Shown: one piece after another, positions 21,630 through 34,909 of the stretch
Position numbering within the stretch: the first letter of the stretch is position 1
Layout of the letters: each line of letters opens with the position of its first letter
Origin: Candidatus Sediminicultor quartus
Lineage (GTDB): Bacteria > Atribacterota > Phoenicimicrobiia > Phoenicimicrobiales > Phoenicimicrobiaceae
Reading direction: 5' to 3'
NCBI GenBank assembly: GCA_011056645.1
Contig: DSEL01000185.1
Coordinates: forward strand, 2,595-66,594
DNA: 64,000 bases
Made by a program: the position numbers and the translations under genes
Notes under the pieces: generated by a model
What the model saw: the letters and a program-made list of their open reading frames with translations, nothing else
Databases searched by the model: none
Told to the model about the DNA's origin: nothing

Positions 21630-23126
21630 TTAGTTAGCCCAATTTAAAGATCTCTTGACAGCTTTTTTCCAACCACTATATAGTGCTTCTTTTATATCTT
21701 CTTTCATCTTTGGTTCATATACTTTCTCTAATTTCCAATGATGTTCTAACTCTTCTGTGCTGTTCCAAAAATTAACTCCTAAACCAGCAAGGTATGCTGC
21801 TCCTAAAGCTGCCATTTCAATAATAGCTGGTTTTTCTACTGTAACACCTAATATATCAGCTTGAAATTGCATTAAAAAATTACTCTTCGAGGCACCTCCA
21901 TCTACCCTTAAAGTTTTTATTTCCTCACCGGAATCAGTCTTCATTGCTTCTAATACATCTCTGACCTGGTATGCTATAGACTCAAGAGCACTCCTGGTGA
22001 TATGTTCCTTAGTAGTACCTCGAGTAATTCCGATAATTAGTCCTCTGGCAAACATATCCCAATAAGGTGCACAAAGACCCGTAAAAGCAGATACAAAATA
22101 AACACCGCCTGTATCCTTTACCTTTTCAGCTAGTTCATCTGATTCTCTTGCGCTTTTGATTATTCTTAATCCATCTCTTAGCCATTGTATAACCGTACCA
22201 CCATTAAAGACCACCCCTTCTAATGCATAGGTCACCCTTCCCCCAATATTCCAGGCAAGATCAGTGGTAAGTCCATTTCTCGATAAAATCGGCTTTTCTC
22301 CTATATTCATCATTAAAGCAAGCCCTGTACCATAGGTATTTTTTACCATACCAGGTTTAAAACAAATCTGTCCTATAGTAGCTGCATGTTGATCTCCTGC
22401 ATCGCCAGCAATAGGTATTTCTTCTCCAAAAAATACCCGTTTATCAGTTTTGGCCAATATACCACTGGAAGGTAATACGTCAGGCATAATACCTACAGGT
22501 ATATTCAACATATTACATAGTTCATTATCCCACTGAAGTGTATGAATATTAAAAAGCATCGTTCGAGAGGCATTAGAAAAATCTGTCACATGATAAGCTC
22601 CTCCACTTAATTTCCATATAAGCCAGGAATCAATATTCCCCATATATATTTTACCGTTAGCAATCTCCTTTTTTACACCAGGTACATTTTCTATAATCCA
22701 TTTGATTTTCGTAGCCGAAAAATAGGCATCTATCACTAAACCAGTTTTTTTTCTAACTATTTTTTCATAACCTTTATTTTTTAAATCATCGCAGATATCG
22801 GCAGTTCGGCGACACATCCAGACAATAGCATTATAAACTGGTTCTCCTGTATCCTTATTCCATAATACAGTTGTTTCTCTTTGATTGGTTACCCCTATAG
22901 CTGCAATTTCCGCTGGTGAAACATTACCTTTTTTTAATGCTTCTTTTATACACTCCATGGTACTATCCCAATACTCTAACGGCTTATGTTCAACCCATCC
23001 CGGTTTAGGATATATTTGCTGTATTTCTTGATAGGCTATGGAATGTATTTCTCCATTCCGGTTGAATAAAATAACCCTTGTACCACTTGTCCCTTGGTCA
23101 ATAGCCATCACATATTTTTTATCCAT
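21630..23126 (-). CDS. glpK: glycerol kinase (FGGY family), paralog 1
   Basis: YVMAIDQGTSGTRVILF, PGWVEH, and full-length GlpK layout. Start set to ATG 23126 (MDKKYVMAIDQG). Confidence 0.9.
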   Translation of the reverse strand: MDKKYVMAIDQGTSGTRVILFNRNGEIHSIAYQEIQQIYPKPGWVEHKPLEYWDSTMECIKEALKKGNVSPAEIAAIGVTNQRETTVLWNKDTGEPVYNAIVWMCRRTADICDDLKNKGYEKIVRKKTGLVIDAYFSATKIKWIIENVPGVKKEIANGKIYMGNIDSWLIWKLSGGAYHVTDFSNASRTMLFNIHTLQWDNELCNMLNIPVGIMPDVLPSSGILAKTDKRVFFGEEIPIAGDAGDQHAATIGQICFKPGMVKNTYGTGLALMMNIGEKPILSRNGLTTDLAWNIGGRVTYALEGVVFNGGTVIQWLRDGLRIIKSARESDELAEKVKDTGGVYFVSAFTGLCAPYWDMFARGLIIGITRGTTKEHITRSALESIAYQVRDVLEAMKTDSGEEIKTLRVDGGASKSNFLMQFQADILGVTVEKPAIIEMAALGAAYLAGLGVNFWNSTEELEHHWKLEKVYEPKMKEDIKEALYSGWKKAVKRSLNWAN

Positions 23127-23295
23127 ATTACACCTCATCCTTCCTTACTTTAATAAAGTAATTAAAACTTTATTCAGTAAATGGAATTTTGAAATTATAT
23201 TAGATGAATAAAACTCATAAATAACTTATTGTATTACCGATCTTATCATTACGCCTTCAGCGTTATCTTCTTTAATATCTATATTCTAATTACCT

Positions 23296-24285
23296 TTAAG
23301 GCACGATTGAGATTTTTAGTCCTTTTCCAGAAATTACTTTCTCGAAGGCATTTTCAATTTCTTTCAAACCAAAAGTATGAGTAATTAACCCTCGAATATC
23401 AAATTCTTTTTTACTTAAAATTTCCATTGATTTTATAAATTGTAAAATAGTTGATCCTGTGGTTGCTGTTATATTTAACTGTCTGTAGTGAACAATATTA
23501 GACTTAAACATAATACTATCTTTACCTTCGGGTAGTCCTCCAAAAAAATTAATCCTTCCCAACTTAGCGGCTAAATCCAGGACCTCCTCTTGAACAGATG
23601 GAATTGAACAAGCAGTTATGATAACATCAGCTCCTTTTCCAGCAGTATGAATAAATACTTCCTCTTTTAAATTAACTCTCGAGGGATTTAAAATAATATC
23701 TGCTCCATATTTTTTAGCTAATTTTAATCTATCGTCACTAATATCCGAAATTATTAGCTTTCTTGCTCCAGCAATTTTAGAAAGAATTAAGTGAAGTAAG
23801 CCCATAGCGCCAGCACCTATAATTAAAACACTATCACTTGGGCCAATTCTCAGAGATTCATAAGCATTGTACACACATGATAAGGGTTCATTTAATGAAG
23901 CTTCAAGAAAATTAAGATTTTCAGGTATTTTAATTAAATTCCCACCAATAATTGCTTTATTTATCACTTTCATATACTCAGCAAATCCACCATTCAGATT
24001 AATTCCGAATGCCTCATAATCATTGCATAGGTTATTATATCCTGCTGCACATAAATAACAATGGCCACATCCAACATTGGGAGCTACAGCAACCCTATCC
24101 CCCAAATTAAATGTAGATATATTTCCCCCTTTTTTAACTACCTCTCCTACAACCTCATGTCCTAAGATTCTATGTTCTCCTTCTTTCATTTGGCGATATC
24201 CATATTTTAATATCTTAATGTCGGTACCACAAATATTACAGGCTTTAACCTTTATTAGTAATTCGTTTTCATTGATTTCCGGCAT
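23296..24285 (-). CDS. zinc-dependent alcohol dehydrogenase (MDR family; sorbitol/threonine-DH-like), paralog 1
   Basis: Catalytic Zn motif CNICGTDIK...GHEVVGEVV, structural Zn Cys cluster CGHCYLCAAG, GAGAMGL NAD motif. Confidence 0.85.
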   Translation of the reverse strand: MPEINENELLIKVKACNICGTDIKILKYGYRQMKEGEHRILGHEVVGEVVKKGGNISTFNLGDRVAVAPNVGCGHCYLCAAGYNNLCNDYEAFGINLNGGFAEYMKVINKAIIGGNLIKIPENLNFLEASLNEPLSCVYNAYESLRIGPSDSVLIIGAGAMGLLHLILSKIAGARKLIISDISDDRLKLAKKYGADIILNPSRVNLKEEVFIHTAGKGADVIITACSIPSVQEEVLDLAAKLGRINFFGGLPEGKDSIMFKSNIVHYRQLNITATTGSTILQFIKSMEILSKKEFDIRGLITHTFGLKEIENAFEKVISGKGLKISIVP

Positions 24286-24633: not shown

Positions 24634-26148
24634 TCATATACAAATATCTTCTTTTTTATCCCAAACAAGCGATCTCTTAACAGCTCTTTTCCATCCAGCG
24701 TATAATTCTTCTCTCCTATCTTCTTTCATTTTCGGTTCGAATACTTTTGATAACTTCCATTGTTTTGAAATTTCTTCCTTATTCGCCCAGAAACCTATTC
24801 CGAGACCGGCTAAATATGCCGCACCCAATGCTGCCATCTCGGTAACTAATGGCACTTCAATAGGTATACCAAGTAAATCGGATTGAAATTGCATTAGAAA
24901 GTCACTATTAGTTGCTCCACCGTCTACTCTTAATGATTTTGCATTTATACCAGAATCTACTGTCATTGTATCAAGTACGTCTCTTGTCTGATATGCTATA
25001 GCTTCCAAAGCACTCCTTGCGATATGCTCTCTACTAGTCCCCCTGGTAATGCCTATTATCAAACCTCTCGCATACATATCCCAATACGGAGCACATAATC
25101 CGGTAAAGGCTGGAACAAAATATACTCCTCCTGTATCTGCTACTTTTTCTGCAAGCAAGTCACATTCATGAGCAGTTTTAATTATTTTCAATCCATCCCT
25201 TAACCACTGGACTGTTGACCCACCCGCAAACACAACGCCTTCAAGTGCATACTCAACATTATTATTAACCACCCAAGCAATATTGGTGGTCAGACCATTC
25301 TTTGAAAATAAAACCTTTTCTCCAACATTCATCATTAATGCTAATGCAGTGCCATAAGTATTCTTTGCCATTCCCGGCTGAAAGCATACCTGTCCAAAAG
25401 TAGCTGCATGCTGGTCACCAGCATCACCCGCAATAGATATTTCTTCCCCAAAAAATACATCCTTATTCGTTGTCGCCATTATTCCACTTGAAGGTTTTAA
25501 CTGCGGTAAAATATTTACAGGAATATCCAAAATATCAAGCAACTCTTTATCCCACTCAAGAGTATGTATATTTAAAAGCATTGTTCTTGATGCATTTGAA
25601 TAATCCTCTACGTGATAAGCCCCCCCACTTAACTTCCATATAAGCCAGCTATCTATGTTACCCATGCATATTTTTCCTTGCGAAATTTTTTCCTTAACGC
25701 CAGAGACATTTTCAATAATCCATTTAATCTTCGTTCCAGAAAAGTATGCATCGATTAAAAGACCAGTTTTGTTTTTGACAGTATCTTCATATCCTCTTGT
25801 TTTTAACTCTTCACATATACTTGCAGTCTGGCGGCTCTGCCAAACAATTGCATTATAAACAGGTAGCCCAGTATCTTTATCCCACAATACAGTTGTCTCT
25901 CTCTGGCAGGTAATGCCTATCGCTGCTATTTCGCTTGCCTTAACGCCACCTTTTTCGAAAGCTTCCTTTGTGCAAACCATAGTTGTATCCCAATATTCCA
26001 TTGGATCATGTTCAACCCAACCAGGGTTTGGATATATCTGTCTTATCTCTCTATAAGCTTTTGAATGAACTTGGCCTTCATGATTGAATAGAATAACCCG
26101 TGTACCTGTTGTACCTTGGTCAATTGCCATTATATATTTTTTTTCCAT
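24634..26148 (-). CDS. glpK: glycerol kinase (FGGY family), paralog 2
   Basis: YIMAIDQGTTGTRVILF; closely similar to paralog 1 (roughly 70% identity over matched blocks by eye). Confidence 0.9.
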   Translation of the reverse strand: MEKKYIMAIDQGTTGTRVILFNHEGQVHSKAYREIRQIYPNPGWVEHDPMEYWDTTMVCTKEAFEKGGVKASEIAAIGITCQRETTVLWDKDTGLPVYNAIVWQSRQTASICEELKTRGYEDTVKNKTGLLIDAYFSGTKIKWIIENVSGVKEKISQGKICMGNIDSWLIWKLSGGAYHVEDYSNASRTMLLNIHTLEWDKELLDILDIPVNILPQLKPSSGIMATTNKDVFFGEEISIAGDAGDQHAATFGQVCFQPGMAKNTYGTALALMMNVGEKVLFSKNGLTTNIAWVVNNNVEYALEGVVFAGGSTVQWLRDGLKIIKTAHECDLLAEKVADTGGVYFVPAFTGLCAPYWDMYARGLIIGITRGTSREHIARSALEAIAYQTRDVLDTMTVDSGINAKSLRVDGGATNSDFLMQFQSDLLGIPIEVPLVTEMAALGAAYLAGLGIGFWANKEEISKQWKLSKVFEPKMKEDRREELYAGWKRAVKRSLVWDKKEDICI

Positions 26149-26280
26149 CTATTCTCCTCCTTAAAATTATTTAATGCTATTTTTGGGCAAGTTTACATTC
26201 ATATATGGGCAAACTCATGGTATTCTGCCCTTCGATTTTATAAAATTATTAATATTGTTTCTTTTTATCTTTGTTACTTT

Positions 26281-27333
26281 TTATAAATCCGGAATAAATA
26301 AAACTTTATTAAATATCTCTTTTTTATAGTACATCATTTCAAAAAATTCTTTACAATCCTCTAACTTTGCTCGGTGGCTTATTATTGGCTTCACTTTAAT
26401 TTTTCCTTTATCCATGAAATCTAAAGAGGATTTCCATTCATTAACCGGAAGAGGAACAATAGATGAATTCCACGAACCAATAATAAATAATTCTCCTCGG
26501 AGTATCTTATTCACTTCTTTACTGGGAAGCAACAGATCATCGTAAGATATTCCGCAATAAATCACCTTACCCATTTTACTTGCTGATTGAATTGCTTGTA
26601 ATTGAGTTATTTTGTTTCCCGCTAACTCAATAACAATATCTGCTCCTTTGTTATGGGTGTAATCCATTATTGCCTCAATAACATTGTTATTTTTTGCGTT
26701 AATTGCTAAATCGACTCCTATTTTTTTAGCTAAATCTAATTTTTCCTGAAAAATATCTACGGCAATAACTTCGGAACATCCTAAAATTTTTAACCATTGT
26801 ATGGCAATAAGTCCAATAGCCCCTAAACCAAAAACTACTGCTGATTGGCCAGCATTAATATTTGCTTTTCCTATGGCATGTAATGCCACACTTACCGGAT
26901 CAGTCATTGCGCCACTTTCATAATCTACATTTTCAGGTAATTTAAGAAGATTGCTTTCCTTTACTACAATATATTCCGCCATTGCACCGGGAATACGAGA
27001 GCCATAATATAGATAATCATCACAAAGATTATATTTTCCTATTTGACAAAATTCGCACTTTCCACAAGGAATTAATGGCATGGCTGTCACTTTATCTGAT
27101 ACCTTAAAAGAAGAAATGCTTTTACCTATCTCCACTACTTCACCACTAAATTCATGGCCGATGATAATCGGCATTTTGTGAGCTCCCTTAACCATTACTC
27201 TTGGTATATCAGATCCGCAAACCCCACAAGCTTTAACTTTTACAAGTACTTCATTTGAATCTTTTATTTCAGGAACTTCTGTCTCCACGCAACTTAGGTT
27301 TGCGGGAGCAAATAATGTTACTGCTCTCATCAT
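26281..27333 (-). CDS. zinc-dependent alcohol dehydrogenase (MDR family), paralog 2
   Basis: CGVCGSDIP...GHEFSGEVVEIGK, structural Zn site CGKCEFCQIGKYNLC, GLGAIGL NAD motif. Confidence 0.85.
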   Translation of the reverse strand: MMRAVTLFAPANLSCVETEVPEIKDSNEVLVKVKACGVCGSDIPRVMVKGAHKMPIIIGHEFSGEVVEIGKSISSFKVSDKVTAMPLIPCGKCEFCQIGKYNLCDDYLYYGSRIPGAMAEYIVVKESNLLKLPENVDYESGAMTDPVSVALHAIGKANINAGQSAVVFGLGAIGLIAIQWLKILGCSEVIAVDIFQEKLDLAKKIGVDLAINAKNNNVIEAIMDYTHNKGADIVIELAGNKITQLQAIQSASKMGKVIYCGISYDDLLLPSKEVNKILRGELFIIGSWNSSIVPLPVNEWKSSLDFMDKGKIKVKPIISHRAKLEDCKEFFEMMYYKKEIFNKVLFIPDL

Positions 27334-29811: not shown

Positions 29812-30081
29812 TTATTCTCCAATATTTACCTGATCAACTATACCCATAATAGTCAAATCAGAAGGGTTGAACCAATTTTTAAGTCCCAAAGCTGCCTCTC
29901 TGCCACCTTCATAAAAAACAATGTCATTTATACCTGCCTGAACCGTATCGCAAGCTACTACAGGATCACCAATTTCTTCTAATTTTTCATTAAGAGGTTG
30001 GAGTAATAACAGTTTTATATCTTGAAAAGATTCTACTTTCTGGGTACAAACAACATTACCAATAACTTTCCCTAATTTCAT
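29812..30081 (-). CDS. BMC vertex protein, EutN/CcmL family (BMC-P) 2
   Basis: 89 aa, MKLGKVIGNVVCTQK...VQAGINDIVF...IMGIVD. Confidence 0.85.
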   Translation of the reverse strand: MKLGKVIGNVVCTQKVESFQDIKLLLLQPLNEKLEEIGDPVVACDTVQAGINDIVFYEGGREAALGLKNWFNPSDLTIMGIVDQVNIGE

Positions 30082-30144
30082 CTCTATCCTCCAGACAAAA
30101 AGCTAATAAAAAATAAATTAATCGATAGTAAATAATCGTTAGTA

Positions 30145-30165
30145 GGACAGGCCTCTCGCCTGTCT
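30145..30165. repeat. GC-rich hairpin GGACAGGC-ctctc-GCCTGTC in the aldDH to BMC-P intergenic region
   Basis: 7-8 bp GC stem with 5-nt loop, followed on the plus strand by TTTAGTTTTTATT. Its orientation is that of a plus-strand terminator although the flanking genes are minus-strand. Confidence 0.4.
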
Positions 30166-30179
30166 ATTTAGTTTTTATT

Positions 30180-30238
30180 GTAGGGATCGGATTTATCCGA
30201 CCCGTTTTCATTGCGGGTTCGATGAATCGAACCCCTAC
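30180..30238. repeat. 59-nt structured repeat, copy A (cloverleaf-like: outer stem GTAGGG/CCCTAC enclosing three hairpins)
   Basis: GTAGGG-at-CGGATttATCCG-a-CCCGttttcattgCGGG-GTTCGAtgaaTCGAAC-CCCTAC. Shares tagggNNNGGATTTATCCGANCCGTTNTCATTGNGG...AATCGAACCCCTAC with copy B at 34090-34149. Both lie in the only two sizeable intergenic gaps of the BMC operon, each just 5' of a BMC-P gene. Confidence 0.6.
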
Positions 30239-30268: not shown

Positions 30269-31714
30269 TTAAACAATTCTAAAATAACCAACCAAGACAC
30301 AACGTCTTTCCCTGGTAAAGGTTCTTGCTCGGGTTAAGCCCTCCCCAGTAGGAGTAGCGATGGTAAAGGAAGTATAACCGGCACCTCCAAATCCCAAACC
30401 ACTATAATTGGGTCCATTTTTTATAAAGAGAGAACAGTTCATCAATTTAGCCATCCTGGAAAGTGTAGCAATATTCCGGGAATGAATAGAAGCAGTATGC
30501 CTGAAATTATGCTCACACTGCACGGCAAAATCTATGGCTTCATCGACATGGCTAAAGCGAACCAGGGGAATCACCGGTAAAAGCTGTTCAGTCCAGACCA
30601 AGGGATGATAAGGATCTACTTCGCAAAGTAATATTTTAGTTTGATCAGAAATATCTAGTCCTATATCCCGGGCGATTATACTGGCATTTTTCCCCACATA
30701 TTCTTTATTTGGTGCCCCTTCATGCCCGGGTTTGCCCGGGTCAGCGATGACTAATTTAGTAACCTTTTCAATCTGATCGTCTTTTAATTCATAAGCGCCA
30801 TTTTTTATCATTTCCTCTTTTAATTTATCGGTAATTTGAGAAACGGCTAAAATCTCTTTCTCACATATACAGACAATATTATTATCAAATCCTGCTCCGA
30901 TCACAATGTCGCGACCGGCTTTAACTAAATCGGCAGTTTCATCAACCACACAGGGAGGATTTCCGGGACCAGCCGCAATGACTTTCTTGTTACTGTTCAT
31001 AGCGGTTTTCACTACCGCCGGACCACCGGTTACTACCAGTAATCTAATTTTAGGATGTGTCATTAAAGTTTGGGCTGAATCAATAGTCGGATTAGCAATA
31101 GCACAAAGAACGTTGGGAGGACCACCGGCTTTTACAATCGCTTGATTGATCAAGGAAACAGTCAAGCAGGAACTTCTTTTTGCTGCAGGATGAGGATTAA
31201 AAACTACCGAATTCCCACCGGTAATCATACTTATTCCATTATTAATAACTGTAGAAGTAGGGTTGGTTGAGGGTATAATAGATCCAATAACCCCATAAGC
31301 TGCTCGTTCCATCAAGGTCATTCCATGATCATCGGAGTAGGCTGTAGGTTCGAGATCTTCTATCCCCGGTGTTTTTAAAGCTGCTAATCTATTCTTTTCA
31401 ATCTTGTCTTCTATTCTGCCAAAAGTTGTTTCTTCTACCGCTAATTTAGAAATTTCTTCCAGATGATCCATTATTATTTTGCGTATGCTCCGAATAATTT
31501 CTCTACGTTGATCCAGGGTTAATTTAATCAGTTCAAGATGGGCAGTCTCGGCAGCATCCACAGCAGCATTTATTTCTTCAAATATTCCATCCTGACCAGA
31601 AAAAGGCCTGTTTAACGAATCATTTGATATTGCTTTATCACTTTTTGTATCTTCTAATTTATTAAGTACGCTTTCAATGATTGATTTTAAATCTTTTTCG
31701 TTTATTTCCATCAT
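30269..31714 (-). CDS. CoA-acylating aldehyde dehydrogenase (PduP/EutE family) with N-terminal encapsulation peptide
   Basis: 481 aa ALDH-superfamily protein with catalytic Cys region. N-terminal helix EKDLKSIIESVLNKL plus linker precede the ALDH domain. Confidence 0.85.
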   Translation of the reverse strand: MMEINEKDLKSIIESVLNKLEDTKSDKAISNDSLNRPFSGQDGIFEEINAAVDAAETAHLELIKLTLDQRREIIRSIRKIIMDHLEEISKLAVEETTFGRIEDKIEKNRLAALKTPGIEDLEPTAYSDDHGMTLMERAAYGVIGSIIPSTNPTSTVINNGISMITGGNSVVFNPHPAAKRSSCLTVSLINQAIVKAGGPPNVLCAIANPTIDSAQTLMTHPKIRLLVVTGGPAVVKTAMNSNKKVIAAGPGNPPCVVDETADLVKAGRDIVIGAGFDNNIVCICEKEILAVSQITDKLKEEMIKNGAYELKDDQIEKVTKLVIADPGKPGHEGAPNKEYVGKNASIIARDIGLDISDQTKILLCEVDPYHPLVWTEQLLPVIPLVRFSHVDEAIDFAVQCEHNFRHTASIHSRNIATLSRMAKLMNCSLFIKNGPNYSGLGFGGAGYTSFTIATPTGEGLTRARTFTRERRCVLVGYFRIV

Positions 31715-33674: not shown

Positions 33675-33962
33675 CTATTTTTTAAAAACAATTTTATTGT
33701 ATGCTTCTACCATATCGACAATTCCTACAATGACGCAATCGACTGGTTTTTGATGGGTAATTTCCGTCTGTCTAGCAGAACTTCCCTGAGAAATAATCAC
33801 TATCTCTCCTACTCCTACTCCGACCAGATCTACAGCAACCAGATAATTACCATCTGTTTGCCCTTTATGGTTGCAAGTTTGAACAAGAAGACACTTCTTT
33901 CCTTTTATTCCTTCATCCATTTGGGTGCTGACTACAGTCCCCACAATTTTACCAAATATCAT
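33675..33962 (-). CDS. BMC vertex protein, EutN family (BMC-P) 3
   Basis: 95 aa, MIFGKIVGTVVSTQ...VGVGVGEIVIISQGSSARQ...VIVGIVD; closely EutN-like. Confidence 0.85.
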   Translation of the reverse strand: MIFGKIVGTVVSTQMDEGIKGKKCLLVQTCNHKGQTDGNYLVAVDLVGVGVGEIVIISQGSSARQTEITHQKPVDCVIVGIVDMVEAYNKIVFKK

Positions 33963-34089
33963 CTTAACCTCTTTTTATTAATTTCTTAAAATTTTAGGAA
34001 TAAACAAACTAGACGTTATTGAATAATCGAGCCCTTAGTGGTTAGTTTAAAATTGAAAACTTTTTGCTATAAATTAATGTTTTTTTAAA

Positions 34090-34149
34090 TAGGGGTTGAA
34101 TTTATCCGATCCGTTCTCATTGTGGCGGGTCCAATAAATCGAACCCCTA
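34090..34149. repeat. 59-60-nt structured repeat, copy B
   Basis: TAGGGGttgAATTTATCCGAtCCGTTcTCATTGtGGcgggtccaataAATCGAACCCCTA. Conserved 5' 35 nt and 3' 14 nt versus copy A; the outer stem can extend (GGGGTTgAATTT / AAATcgAACCCC). Confidence 0.6.
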
Positions 34150-34178
34150 CAAAAAAGGAAGATCTCTAAACAATTTTA

Positions 34179-34469
34179 TTATTTTTTGTATACATATTCT
34201 CCTTTAATATCTATAGAATCAACGATAGATATTATTGTTGCATCACTCGGTTTTCCTTCGGTAGTTGCCGTCATCCTGGAACTACTTCCGGCCACAAAAA
34301 AGACTATTTCCCCTAATCCTGCTCCCACACTATCCATTGCTACCAGATAATCGCCTTTCCCCTGCATGTTGGTAGGATTAATTTTCTCCAGAAGTAAAAA
34401 TTTTATGCCCTCAATTTTCGGTTCTTTCCTGGTTGATACCACTGTACCCACTACTCTTGCCAGTATCAT
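34179..34469 (-). CDS. BMC vertex protein, EutN family (BMC-P) 4
   Basis: 96 aa, MILARVVGTVVSTRK...VGAGLGEIVFFVAGSSSRM...IISIVD. Confidence 0.85.
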   Translation of the reverse strand: MILARVVGTVVSTRKEPKIEGIKFLLLEKINPTNMQGKGDYLVAMDSVGAGLGEIVFFVAGSSSRMTATTEGKPSDATIISIVDSIDIKGEYVYKK

Positions 34470-34880: not shown

Positions 34881-34909
34881 ATTTTAACATACTATTTTTT
34901 TCATGTCAA
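34881..34909 (-). promoter_or_regulatory. near-consensus sigma-70 promoter of the BMC operon (TTGACA - 17 nt - TAAAAT with upstream TGn extended -10)
   Basis: On the minus strand, TTGACA is at 34909-34904, a 17-nt spacer follows, and TAAAAT is at 34886-34881, preceded by TGt. It lies 57 bp upstream of the BMC-H ATG (34824) and 28 bp upstream of the AGGAGG SD. Confidence 0.65.

Follow-up and report, generated by a model that had tools for sequence, protein, structure and literature searches.

Each of the two similar 59-62-nt copies found in the BMC operon analysed here is best read as a head-to-head dimer of GTAG-tagged REPs of the REPIN/BIME type, presumably mobilised by a REP-associated tyrosine (HUH/Y1) transposase (RAYT), a reading to which a probability of about 0.87 is assigned. 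The family to which the copies belong is large and dispersed in Atribacterota and other bacteria, where it occupies mainly intergenic sites. The two copies, a third REP (30142-30164) and short flank modules together form the repeat mosaics that fill two gaps of the operon. The copies have settled in these gaps and are not an RNA regulator specific to the microcompartment. The window referred to below is the whole stretch of DNA that was analysed, 64 kb in length.

Operon setting and anatomy of the repeat units

The window has a G+C content of 35.8%, and close homologues of its aldehyde dehydrogenase (AldDH) carry Atribacterota or Caldatribacteriota labels. The genes flanking both copies all lie on the - strand, so that the transcribed form of the repeats is the reverse complement of the strand that had been folded in the earlier note on this DNA. 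Based upon Pfam matches, and in the direction of transcription, a promoter-like site (34909-34881) is followed by genes for a BMC-H protein and a 96-aa BMC-P protein (34179-34469, - strand; PF03319), gap B (216 nt), and genes for a 95-aa BMC-P protein (33675-33962, - strand; PF03319), an RnfC-like protein, a tandem-BMC protein and AldDH (30269-31714, - strand; PF00171), which ends at gap A (187 nt). Beyond gap A lie the genes for an 89-aa BMC-P protein (29812-30081, - strand; PF03319), an 87-aa BMC-P protein, RpiB, a DeoC-type aldolase, PTAC and further sugar genes. The description of gaps A and B as the only two substantial gaps of the operon agrees with these lengths, as gaps elsewhere in the core operon measure at most 47 nt. 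The statement that each copy precedes a pair of BMC-P genes does not fit the order of the genes: copy B separates two BMC-P genes, and downstream of it come a single BMC-P gene and then the RnfC-like gene.

Copy A extends from 30180 to 30238, as had been reported, and copy B from 34089 to 34150, one base more at each end than had been claimed. Alignment of the two gives 50 identities in 59 positions and one 3-nt indel. No difference is seen in the last 14 nt, in keeping with the 14 conserved 3' nucleotides described before; of the 35 nucleotides at the 5' end that had likewise been called conserved, 28 are identical. Both copies lie close behind the upstream gene and at some distance from the next one. 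Unit 1 of copy A starts 30 nt past the AldDH stop codon, with the 89-aa BMC-P gene 98 nt downstream of the copy, and unit 1 of copy B starts 28 nt past the stop codon of the 96-aa BMC-P gene, with the 95-aa BMC-P gene 126 nt downstream. The copies are thus 28-30 nt past the upstream stop and 98-126 nt ahead of the next start, and at this distance the hairpins could not mask the ribosome-binding sites.

Each copy divides into two inverted units, which were scored with R1, an independent covariance model built solely from unrelated metagenome contigs. Unit 1 of copy A (30212-30238, - strand) reads, on the sense strand, GTAG followed by GGGTTCGA-TTCA-TCGAACCC and a final G, forms a perfect 8-bp local hairpin and scores 38.9 bits (E = 1.1e-7). 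Unit 2 of copy A (30180-30206, + strand) is inverted relative to unit 1, reads GTAG followed by GGATCGGA-TTTA-TCCGACCC on the + strand (GTAG-GGGTCGGA-TTTA-TCCGACCC when divided into GTAG and palindrome) and scores 27.4 bits (E = 7.7e-5). With the 5-nt spacer at 30207-30211, these units form a head-to-head REP doublet (REPIN) at 30180-30238. On the sense strand, unit 1 of copy B (34124-34150, - strand) reads GTAG followed by GGGTTCGA-TTTA-TTGGACCC; its RNA contains two G-U pairs, and it scores 31.7 bits (E = 6.7e-6). The inverted unit 2 (34089-34115, + strand) has a degenerate head (ATAG) and a partly decayed stem, and scores 16.4 bits (E = 0.043); the two units and the spacer at 34116-34123 form the REP doublet at 34089-34150. 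A perfect 8-bp stem with a 4-nt loop is present in three of the four units, the exception being unit 2 of copy B. GTAG heads begin units at 30238 (-), 30180 (+), 30142 (+) and 34150 (-), and the degenerate ATAG head is at 34089 (+). Each unit thus comprises an unpaired GTAG tag, an 8-bp GC-rich stem and a 4-nt loop, and the GTAG tags are outermost in the doublet. The unit was expressed as the pattern GTAGGG-N-TYSGATTYATCSRR-N-CC.

An nhmmer profile made from the two copies, and circular as regards those two, found related copies in other loci. When R1 was run over the 64-kb window it returned exactly the four half-units (E = 1e-7, 7e-6, 8e-5 and 0.04) and nothing besides them below E = 0.5. 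The content of the window is two doublets and one single unit. The latter, found by a GTAG-hairpin scan, is the third GTAG-tagged REP (30142-30164, + strand), which has another stem (GTAG-GACAGGC-CTCTC-GCCTGTC). A second GC hairpin had been placed beside copy A at 30145-30165; it is real, and is this third REP. The same module is found in five non-BMC metagenome loci (for example L068, L121 and L161), and it resembles a terminator on the antisense (+) strand only. Next to it, the alignments of gap A and gap B revealed a short direct-repeat module with the sense-strand sequence TAACGATTATTTACTATCGATTAAT (30117-30141, - strand). Tandem repeats of the CTAACGA type, which occupy these gaps in relatives, are related to this module, whose version in the relative L017 matches 11-16 non-BMC loci. 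In gap B, the alignment revealed a diverged copy (34045-34088, - strand) of a flank module of about 47 nt (TTAAAAGCAATACTTTATACGAAAAAAGTTTTGAGTTTTGAAC in relatives).

Dispersal of the family and pairing in its stems

A metagenome scan with GTAGGGNTYSGATTYATCSRRNCC matched at least 120 stretches, and among the matches listed no locus encodes BMC proteins. Of 137 matches listed, 123 (90%) are extragenic, in that they lie outside ORFs of at least 120 aa, and 95 (69%) have an inverted partner within 130 nt. The classifiable sites among the listed matches comprise 50 codirectional, 7 convergent and 4 divergent ones. Within 500 nt of a REP, the listed matches include 245 ORFs, and no protein family was found to recur beside the repeats: the largest family common to different loci counts three members, so that nearly every REP has a different context. 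Contigs that host the same core range from 27 to 68% G+C. Units are also found singly, without a partner, and where units are paired their spacers run from about 5 to 70 nt across the family. In 215 kb of Atribacterota loci, which come from partial genomes, a rough density of about 10 sites outside the two BMC gaps was obtained.

Among the readings offered in the earlier note, a small repeat family was right in kind, and wrong in that the family is very large and dispersed, neither small nor specific to the operon. Many copies were found in unrelated contexts, the opposite of the absence of further copies for which that note had also allowed, and copies so numerous in such contexts make a dedicated role unlikely.

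Variation within the stems was examined in 70 distinct partner units. These were chosen solely by their GTAGGGG head, and the invariance of the head in this set is therefore a result of selection. Across the 70 units, 88.8% of the cells of the 8-bp stem are paired, as against 73.2% in shuffles, none of 500 of which reached the observed value. Stem cells changed on both sides number 101, compared with 29.9 in the shuffles, and controls in which the partner column was slid gave 28-52% pairing. Four stem positions each show four to six types of standard pair. This compensatory variation indicates that the conserved feature is a simple local hairpin with its tag, and not a four-way junction. A local hairpin with a tag is the requirement of an enzyme that reads structure, or of an RNA hairpin.

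Ten or more unrelated non-BMC loci carry the doublet together with its flank of about 47 nt. The block in one of these, L144, is 91% identical over 146 nt to the filler of gap B in L017, and is sited between a ferredoxin-like gene and a convergent glucosidase-like gene, the latter judged by eye from its translation. As it recurs with its flank at unrelated sites, the doublet, rather than the single unit, appears from these sequences to be what is copied. Further small modules from the gaps are likewise found at other loci, which identifies the gaps as BIME-like mosaics.

Gap occupancy among relatives and alternative readings

Orthologous loci were fetched with AldDH as the query, and 17 Atribacterota loci whose AldDH is 86-94% identical to that of the window were compared. 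Gap B, between the genes for the 96-aa and 95-aa BMC-P proteins, measures 53-54 nt in L008, L013, L014 and L015, and 193-229 nt in the window, L005-L007, L010, L016 and L017; it is filled in 7 of 11 loci and empty in 4 of 11. Gap A, between AldDH and the gene for the 89-aa BMC-P protein, is filled in 14 of 18 loci and empty in 4 of 18, with a length of 36-42 nt in L008, L009, L012 and L016. Three different repeat mosaics fill it. The doublet described here is present in the window, L006, L007, L015 and L017; a second GTAG-headed mosaic, with tandem repeats of CTCGATAC, is present in L010, L021 and L027; and a third filler is present in L005, L011, L013, L014 and L028. Both gaps are empty in L008, the closest relative of the window (94% AldDH identity). 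The states of the two gaps are independent: in L015 gap A is filled and gap B is empty, and in L016 gap A is empty and gap B is filled, by a single unit with another stem. The other gaps of the operon are essentially constant across the compared loci. In Spirochaete loci whose BMC shell and AldDH genes are similar, AldDH and BMC-P are about 15 nt apart. Since the gaps are polymorphic among relatives, the element is not a conserved part of the design of the operon. Neither a target-site duplication nor a simple insertion boundary could be defined between empty and filled gaps, because in the filled ones the added sequence does not simply interrupt the empty gap but takes the place of its 5' part.

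Inserts are far more frequent in these two gaps than in any other gap of the operon, which is not predicted by pure neutral scatter. Such frequent filling may mean that inserts are tolerated there, that one old insertion was followed by turnover, or that a spacer hairpin before BMC-P genes is under selection.

The last of these touches on an unlikely alternative, in which a REP has been co-opted and retained since its hairpin punctuates the polycistronic mRNA at both gaps. In its variants, the hairpin shields the upstream segment from 3' exonucleases, or lowers read-through into BMC-P or its translation, such that the pentamer (vertex) protein is kept scarce. In its favour, a BMC-P gene follows directly on each of the two gaps, and repeated filling is seen at no other gap of the operon; four species per gap nevertheless have no insert, including L008 at both gaps, and the tight junction between AldDH and BMC-P in the Spirochaete loci, where the genes are similar, also speaks against it. 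The hairpins are stable (-24.6 to -26.6 kcal/mol, z about -4.6) and, like REPs that are thought to act as RNA, sit close behind the upstream stop codon and well ahead of the following start, yet the fillers are unlike one another in both sequence and structure. At copy B the evidence is divided, in that unit 1 stays paired by G-U pairs that work in the sense RNA alone, but unit 2 is decaying (R1 E = 0.04). The narrower proposal that the gaps before BMC-P genes are selected sites, where different REP mosaics have been retained repeatedly because a stable hairpin between cistrons lowers the message of the pentamer genes relative to the upstream shell and enzyme genes, is slightly more doubtful again.

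Under the preferred reading as mobile REP doublets, an effect on the message may still arise in passing. Both copies are transcribed as part of the operon mRNA, in which their hairpins of about -25 kcal/mol may, as a by-product, delay the 3'-to-5' decay of the upstream segment, an effect that the data do not require. Slowing of 3' exonucleolytic decay is a role that has long been proposed for REPs.

It is very unlikely that the two copies represent a neutral duplicated spacer, that is, an intergenic segment copied locally with a BMC-P gene, whose similarity would then be shared ancestry. In favour of a local duplication, the similarity between the two gaps includes flank modules outside the 59 nt, and a BMC-P gene comes next in both. 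Non-BMC loci, however, also carry this doublet complete with its CAATGAAAA spacer and its flank, as in the 146-nt L144 block described above. The conserved part between gaps A and B is exactly the REP units, and the remainder of the gaps differs. The gaps are moreover empty or filled independently of one another, as L015 and L016 show in opposite senses.

A dedicated, structured cis-regulatory RNA of the BMC operon, with a cloverleaf or four-way junction serving as a processing site or attenuator, is even harder to credit. The presence of two similar copies in the two large gaps of one operon would accord with it, as would folding that is significantly stronger than that of shuffled sequence: with ViennaRNA, both copies on both strands fold as one long imperfect hairpin of -24.6 to -29.4 kcal/mol (z about -4.6). 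The form that this folding takes is a different one from the cloverleaf. As drawn in the earlier note, the cloverleaf requires a hairpin loop of 2 nt, which is sterically impossible, and when corrected it reaches -18.3 kcal/mol on the sense strand and -20.4 kcal/mol on the + strand, 6-9 kcal/mol worse than the best fold. Copy A gives -26.6 kcal/mol (sense) and -29.4 kcal/mol (+ strand) as a single long hairpin, and -25.3 kcal/mol (sense) and -23.9 kcal/mol (+ strand) as two local 8-bp hairpins, the two forms being nearly equal on the sense strand. The copy B doublet gives -24.6 kcal/mol as one long hairpin. Two inverted units that face each other over a spacer of 5-8 nt can accordingly form either two local hairpins or one long imperfect hairpin. 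Covariation, which had been suggested as a check on the four-way junction, supports the two simple local hairpins instead, and these are also found as single units.

Other observations on the two gaps point the same way. The element had been tied to BMC-P genes as a processing or stability element that sets shell-protein stoichiometry, or as an attenuator. Close relatives lack it at the orthologous gaps, and it is present at more than 100 unrelated, mostly intergenic sites. The remark that it matches no recognised structured-RNA family was upheld by a scan of Rfam 15, with no match at the gathering threshold and none at E <= 1. A T-arm-like GGTTCGA prompted a tRNA/tmRNA scan, in which nothing was found. 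On the sense strand of both copies a T-run precedes the hairpin and an A-rich run follows it, for which reason the hairpins are not terminator-like. An intrinsic terminator or attenuator was considered and rejected, as no U-tract lies past the hairpin on the sense strand; the promoter and terminator scan found no intrinsic terminator on the sense strand of either gap, and terminator-like sites on the antisense strand only. There is no sign of a dedicated device for the control of BMC-P.

A DNA operator, in which a dimeric transcription factor would bind the tandem palindromes and govern an internal promoter, can be set aside for practical purposes: the two 20-bp palindromes have centres about 31 bp apart, as would suit such a protein, but their stems vary freely with compensation across the family where operators conserve sequence, the GTAG tags are conserved, the sites number more than 100 in unrelated places, and no sigma-70-like promoter is predicted on the sense strand of gap A or gap B.

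Candidate transposase and known repeat systems

In the mechanism proposed for the REP doublets, the units would spread as non-autonomous elements. A RAYT would recognise the GTAG tag and the hairpin on single-stranded DNA and would spread the doublets, in line with the model of recognition between REPs and RAYTs (PMC2817692, PMC3479197, PMC8266576). A motif search found no RAYT encoded in the 64-kb window. Over all fetched loci, the search found two RAYT-like ORFs, both outside the window. Both match PF01797 (Y1_Tnp) above its cut-off, and score 66 bits with the NCBIfam model REP_Tyr_transpos, below its cut-off of 80; these matches are given for L153 (241-813) and L172 (10001-10591). The first of the two RAYTs (L153 and L172-L177) has homologues named Atribacteria by NCBI and RayT by JGI. 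On each of the six contigs examined, which come from six samples, this Atribacteria RAYT gene is found between hypD and hypE; a fixed chromosomal place is expected of a RAYT that is single-copy and vertically inherited (PMC5581495).

Inverted GTAGGGGCAGACCTTGTGTCTGCCC units flank the Atribacteria RAYT gene, with the head GTAGGGG as in the units of the window. These flanking REPs (in L153 and L172-L177) are GTAGGGGCAGACC... units with a CAGACC stem, unlike the stems of the window. The RAYT-flanking REP thus has the same head and a different stem. The Atribacteria RAYT contigs also carry GTAGGGGTCGGATTTATCCGACCC doublets, which have the TCGGAT stem of the window. A cognate RAYT for the TTCGAT and TCGGAT stems was sought among the fetched loci, where the Atribacteria RAYT is flanked by the CAGACC-stem REP instead. 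RAYTs that go with a TTCGAT-stem unit are those of CPR/Moranbacteria, in which the unit is inside the coding sequence and not beside the gene. Because head and lineage are the same and the stem is different, the link between the RAYT and the two stem types of the window is indirect.

The anatomy of the units agrees closely with that of GTAG-tagged REPs as described by Di Nocera et al. (2013; PMC3733652). Those REPs are units of 20-40 bp with an unpaired terminal GTAG, a GC-rich stem (6-13 bp) and a 2-4-nt loop; they form sub-families by complementary stem changes with G-T pairs, and heterodimers with GTAG on the outside. They lie mostly between codirectional or convergent ORFs, near the 3' end of the upstream one, with occasional in-frame intragenic copies, and more than 100 copies are typical within one genome. 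The tag, the stem (here 8-9 bp), the complementary stem changes, the heterodimers, the codirectional or convergent siting near the upstream 3' end and the occasional in-frame copies are all shared by the present family. The consensus here, GTAGGGG-NNNGAT-TYA-ATCNNN-CCC, was likened by anatomy, and not by consensus, to the 24 families listed in that source, and Atribacterota is not among the 8 phyla that it reports. In the literature searched, no paper was found that links Atribacteria with REPs.

Head-to-head REP dimers are called REPINs when they are seen as a mobile unit (PMC3116915). The inverted REPs, short spacer and single long hairpin of the present doublets are features of REPINs and their RAYTs (Bertels and Rainey 2011, PMC3116915; Bertels et al. 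2017, PMC5581495), as are the recurrence of the doublet with its flank and a RAYT at a fixed place, flanked by inverted REPs. Three differences apply: the RAYT-flanking REP has another stem, the spacer is very short (5-8 nt), and in the present case we infer transposition. With the BIMEs of E. coli, the mosaics share alternating REPs mixed with small conserved modules, a position inside operons and variability between relatives; the sequences are unrelated, however, and the binding of IHF, gyrase and Pol I and the effects on mRNA decay are features of E. coli. As small non-coding composites of about 100-150 nt that form hairpins and occupy many intergenic sites, they also resemble MITEs, but they lack the 15-30-bp terminal inverted repeats of a parent IS, and their ends are GTAG-tagged palindromes.

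The kind of repeat described here is already well known, and the present analysis extends GTAG-tagged REPs and the RAYT to Atribacterota. For those who annotate Atribacterota (JS1) genomes or the microcompartment loci in them, GC-rich hairpins in AT-rich intergenic DNA are to be taken as REP/REPIN repeats rather than as operon-specific riboregulators. The close relatives with empty and with filled gaps constitute a natural experiment on the effect of a REP on the relative expression of shell proteins. If it were true that the gaps are selected, a selfish repeat family would have been recruited as a dosage control for the vertex protein in the microcompartments of Atribacterota.

Operon start and intergenic gaps

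A sigma-70-like promoter close to consensus (TTGACA-17-TAAAAT with an extended TG) was predicted at window positions 34881-34909 on the minus strand. It precedes the start codon of the BMC-H gene by 57 nt and likely marks the start of the BMC operon. In Atribacterota relatives carrying the orthologous operon, the gap between the aldehyde dehydrogenase and BMC-P genes is filled by short tandem repeats adjoining GTAG-headed hairpins (L010 4641-4851, L021 1001-1208, L027 738-946, L015 11444-11642 and L017 7374-7584). These repeats are the 8-mer CTCGATAC, in up to 4 copies, and the 7-mer CTAACGA, in up to 3. The RpiB-DeoC gap is widened in two relatives, L005 (12874-13023) and L028, to 150 and 208 nt versus 27 nt. 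A GTAG-tagged hairpin lies inside the L005 gap; therefore, other gaps of the operon also receive REPs now and then.

The window also contains two paralogous gene pairs 3022 nt apart (21630-24285 and 24634-27333), each comprising an FGGY sugar kinase and a gene of 329 or 350 aa. The Pfam scan covered the 350-aa gene and the 504-aa kinase, and precomputed JGI calls identify the two remaining genes as a Zn-ADH and an FGGY kinase. The pairs are about 74% identical over 300 nt, and this similarity suggests that a sugar-alcohol module lying downstream of the BMC core has been duplicated.

REP-derived peptides within RAYT-like genes

In several genes resembling REP-associated tyrosine transposases (RAYTs), the lineage's own REP, or a complete REP doublet, lies in frame immediately after the HUH motif (MPNHIH). 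Such genes were found at L153 241-813 (minus strand), L172 10001-10591, L109 725-1411 and L178 770-1465. In the Atribacteria RAYT the in-frame GTAGGGGCAGACCTTGTGTCTGCCC is translated to VGADLVSARNK, a peptide repeated 1-3 times across homologues, and in CPR/Moranbacteria genes the in-frame GTAGGGGTTCGATTCATCGAACCC ... CCCCTAC is translated to VGVRFIEP...GFDESNPY. Some palindrome-derived peptide directly follows the HUH motif in most of the 240 homologues listed (P0121-P0360). No description of an in-frame REP at this position was found in the consulted portions of PMC3733652 and PMC5581495.

The RAYT locus and the distribution of the REP core

The Atribacteria RAYT occupies one constant position, hypD-RAYT-hypE, on 6/6 contigs from six different samples (L172-L177), with inverted REPs on both sides. 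This fixed site and its inverted flanking REPs fit a domesticated, vertically inherited single-copy gene.

One and the same 24-nt REP core, GTAGGGG-TTCGAT/TCGGAT-TYA-...-CCC, was present on metagenome contigs spanning 27-68% G+C (L052-L171). Among the matches listed, 65 contigs were below 40% G+C, 35 were at 40-50% and 20 were at or above 50%, and this range of host compositions suggests that a single REP type is common to very different phyla.
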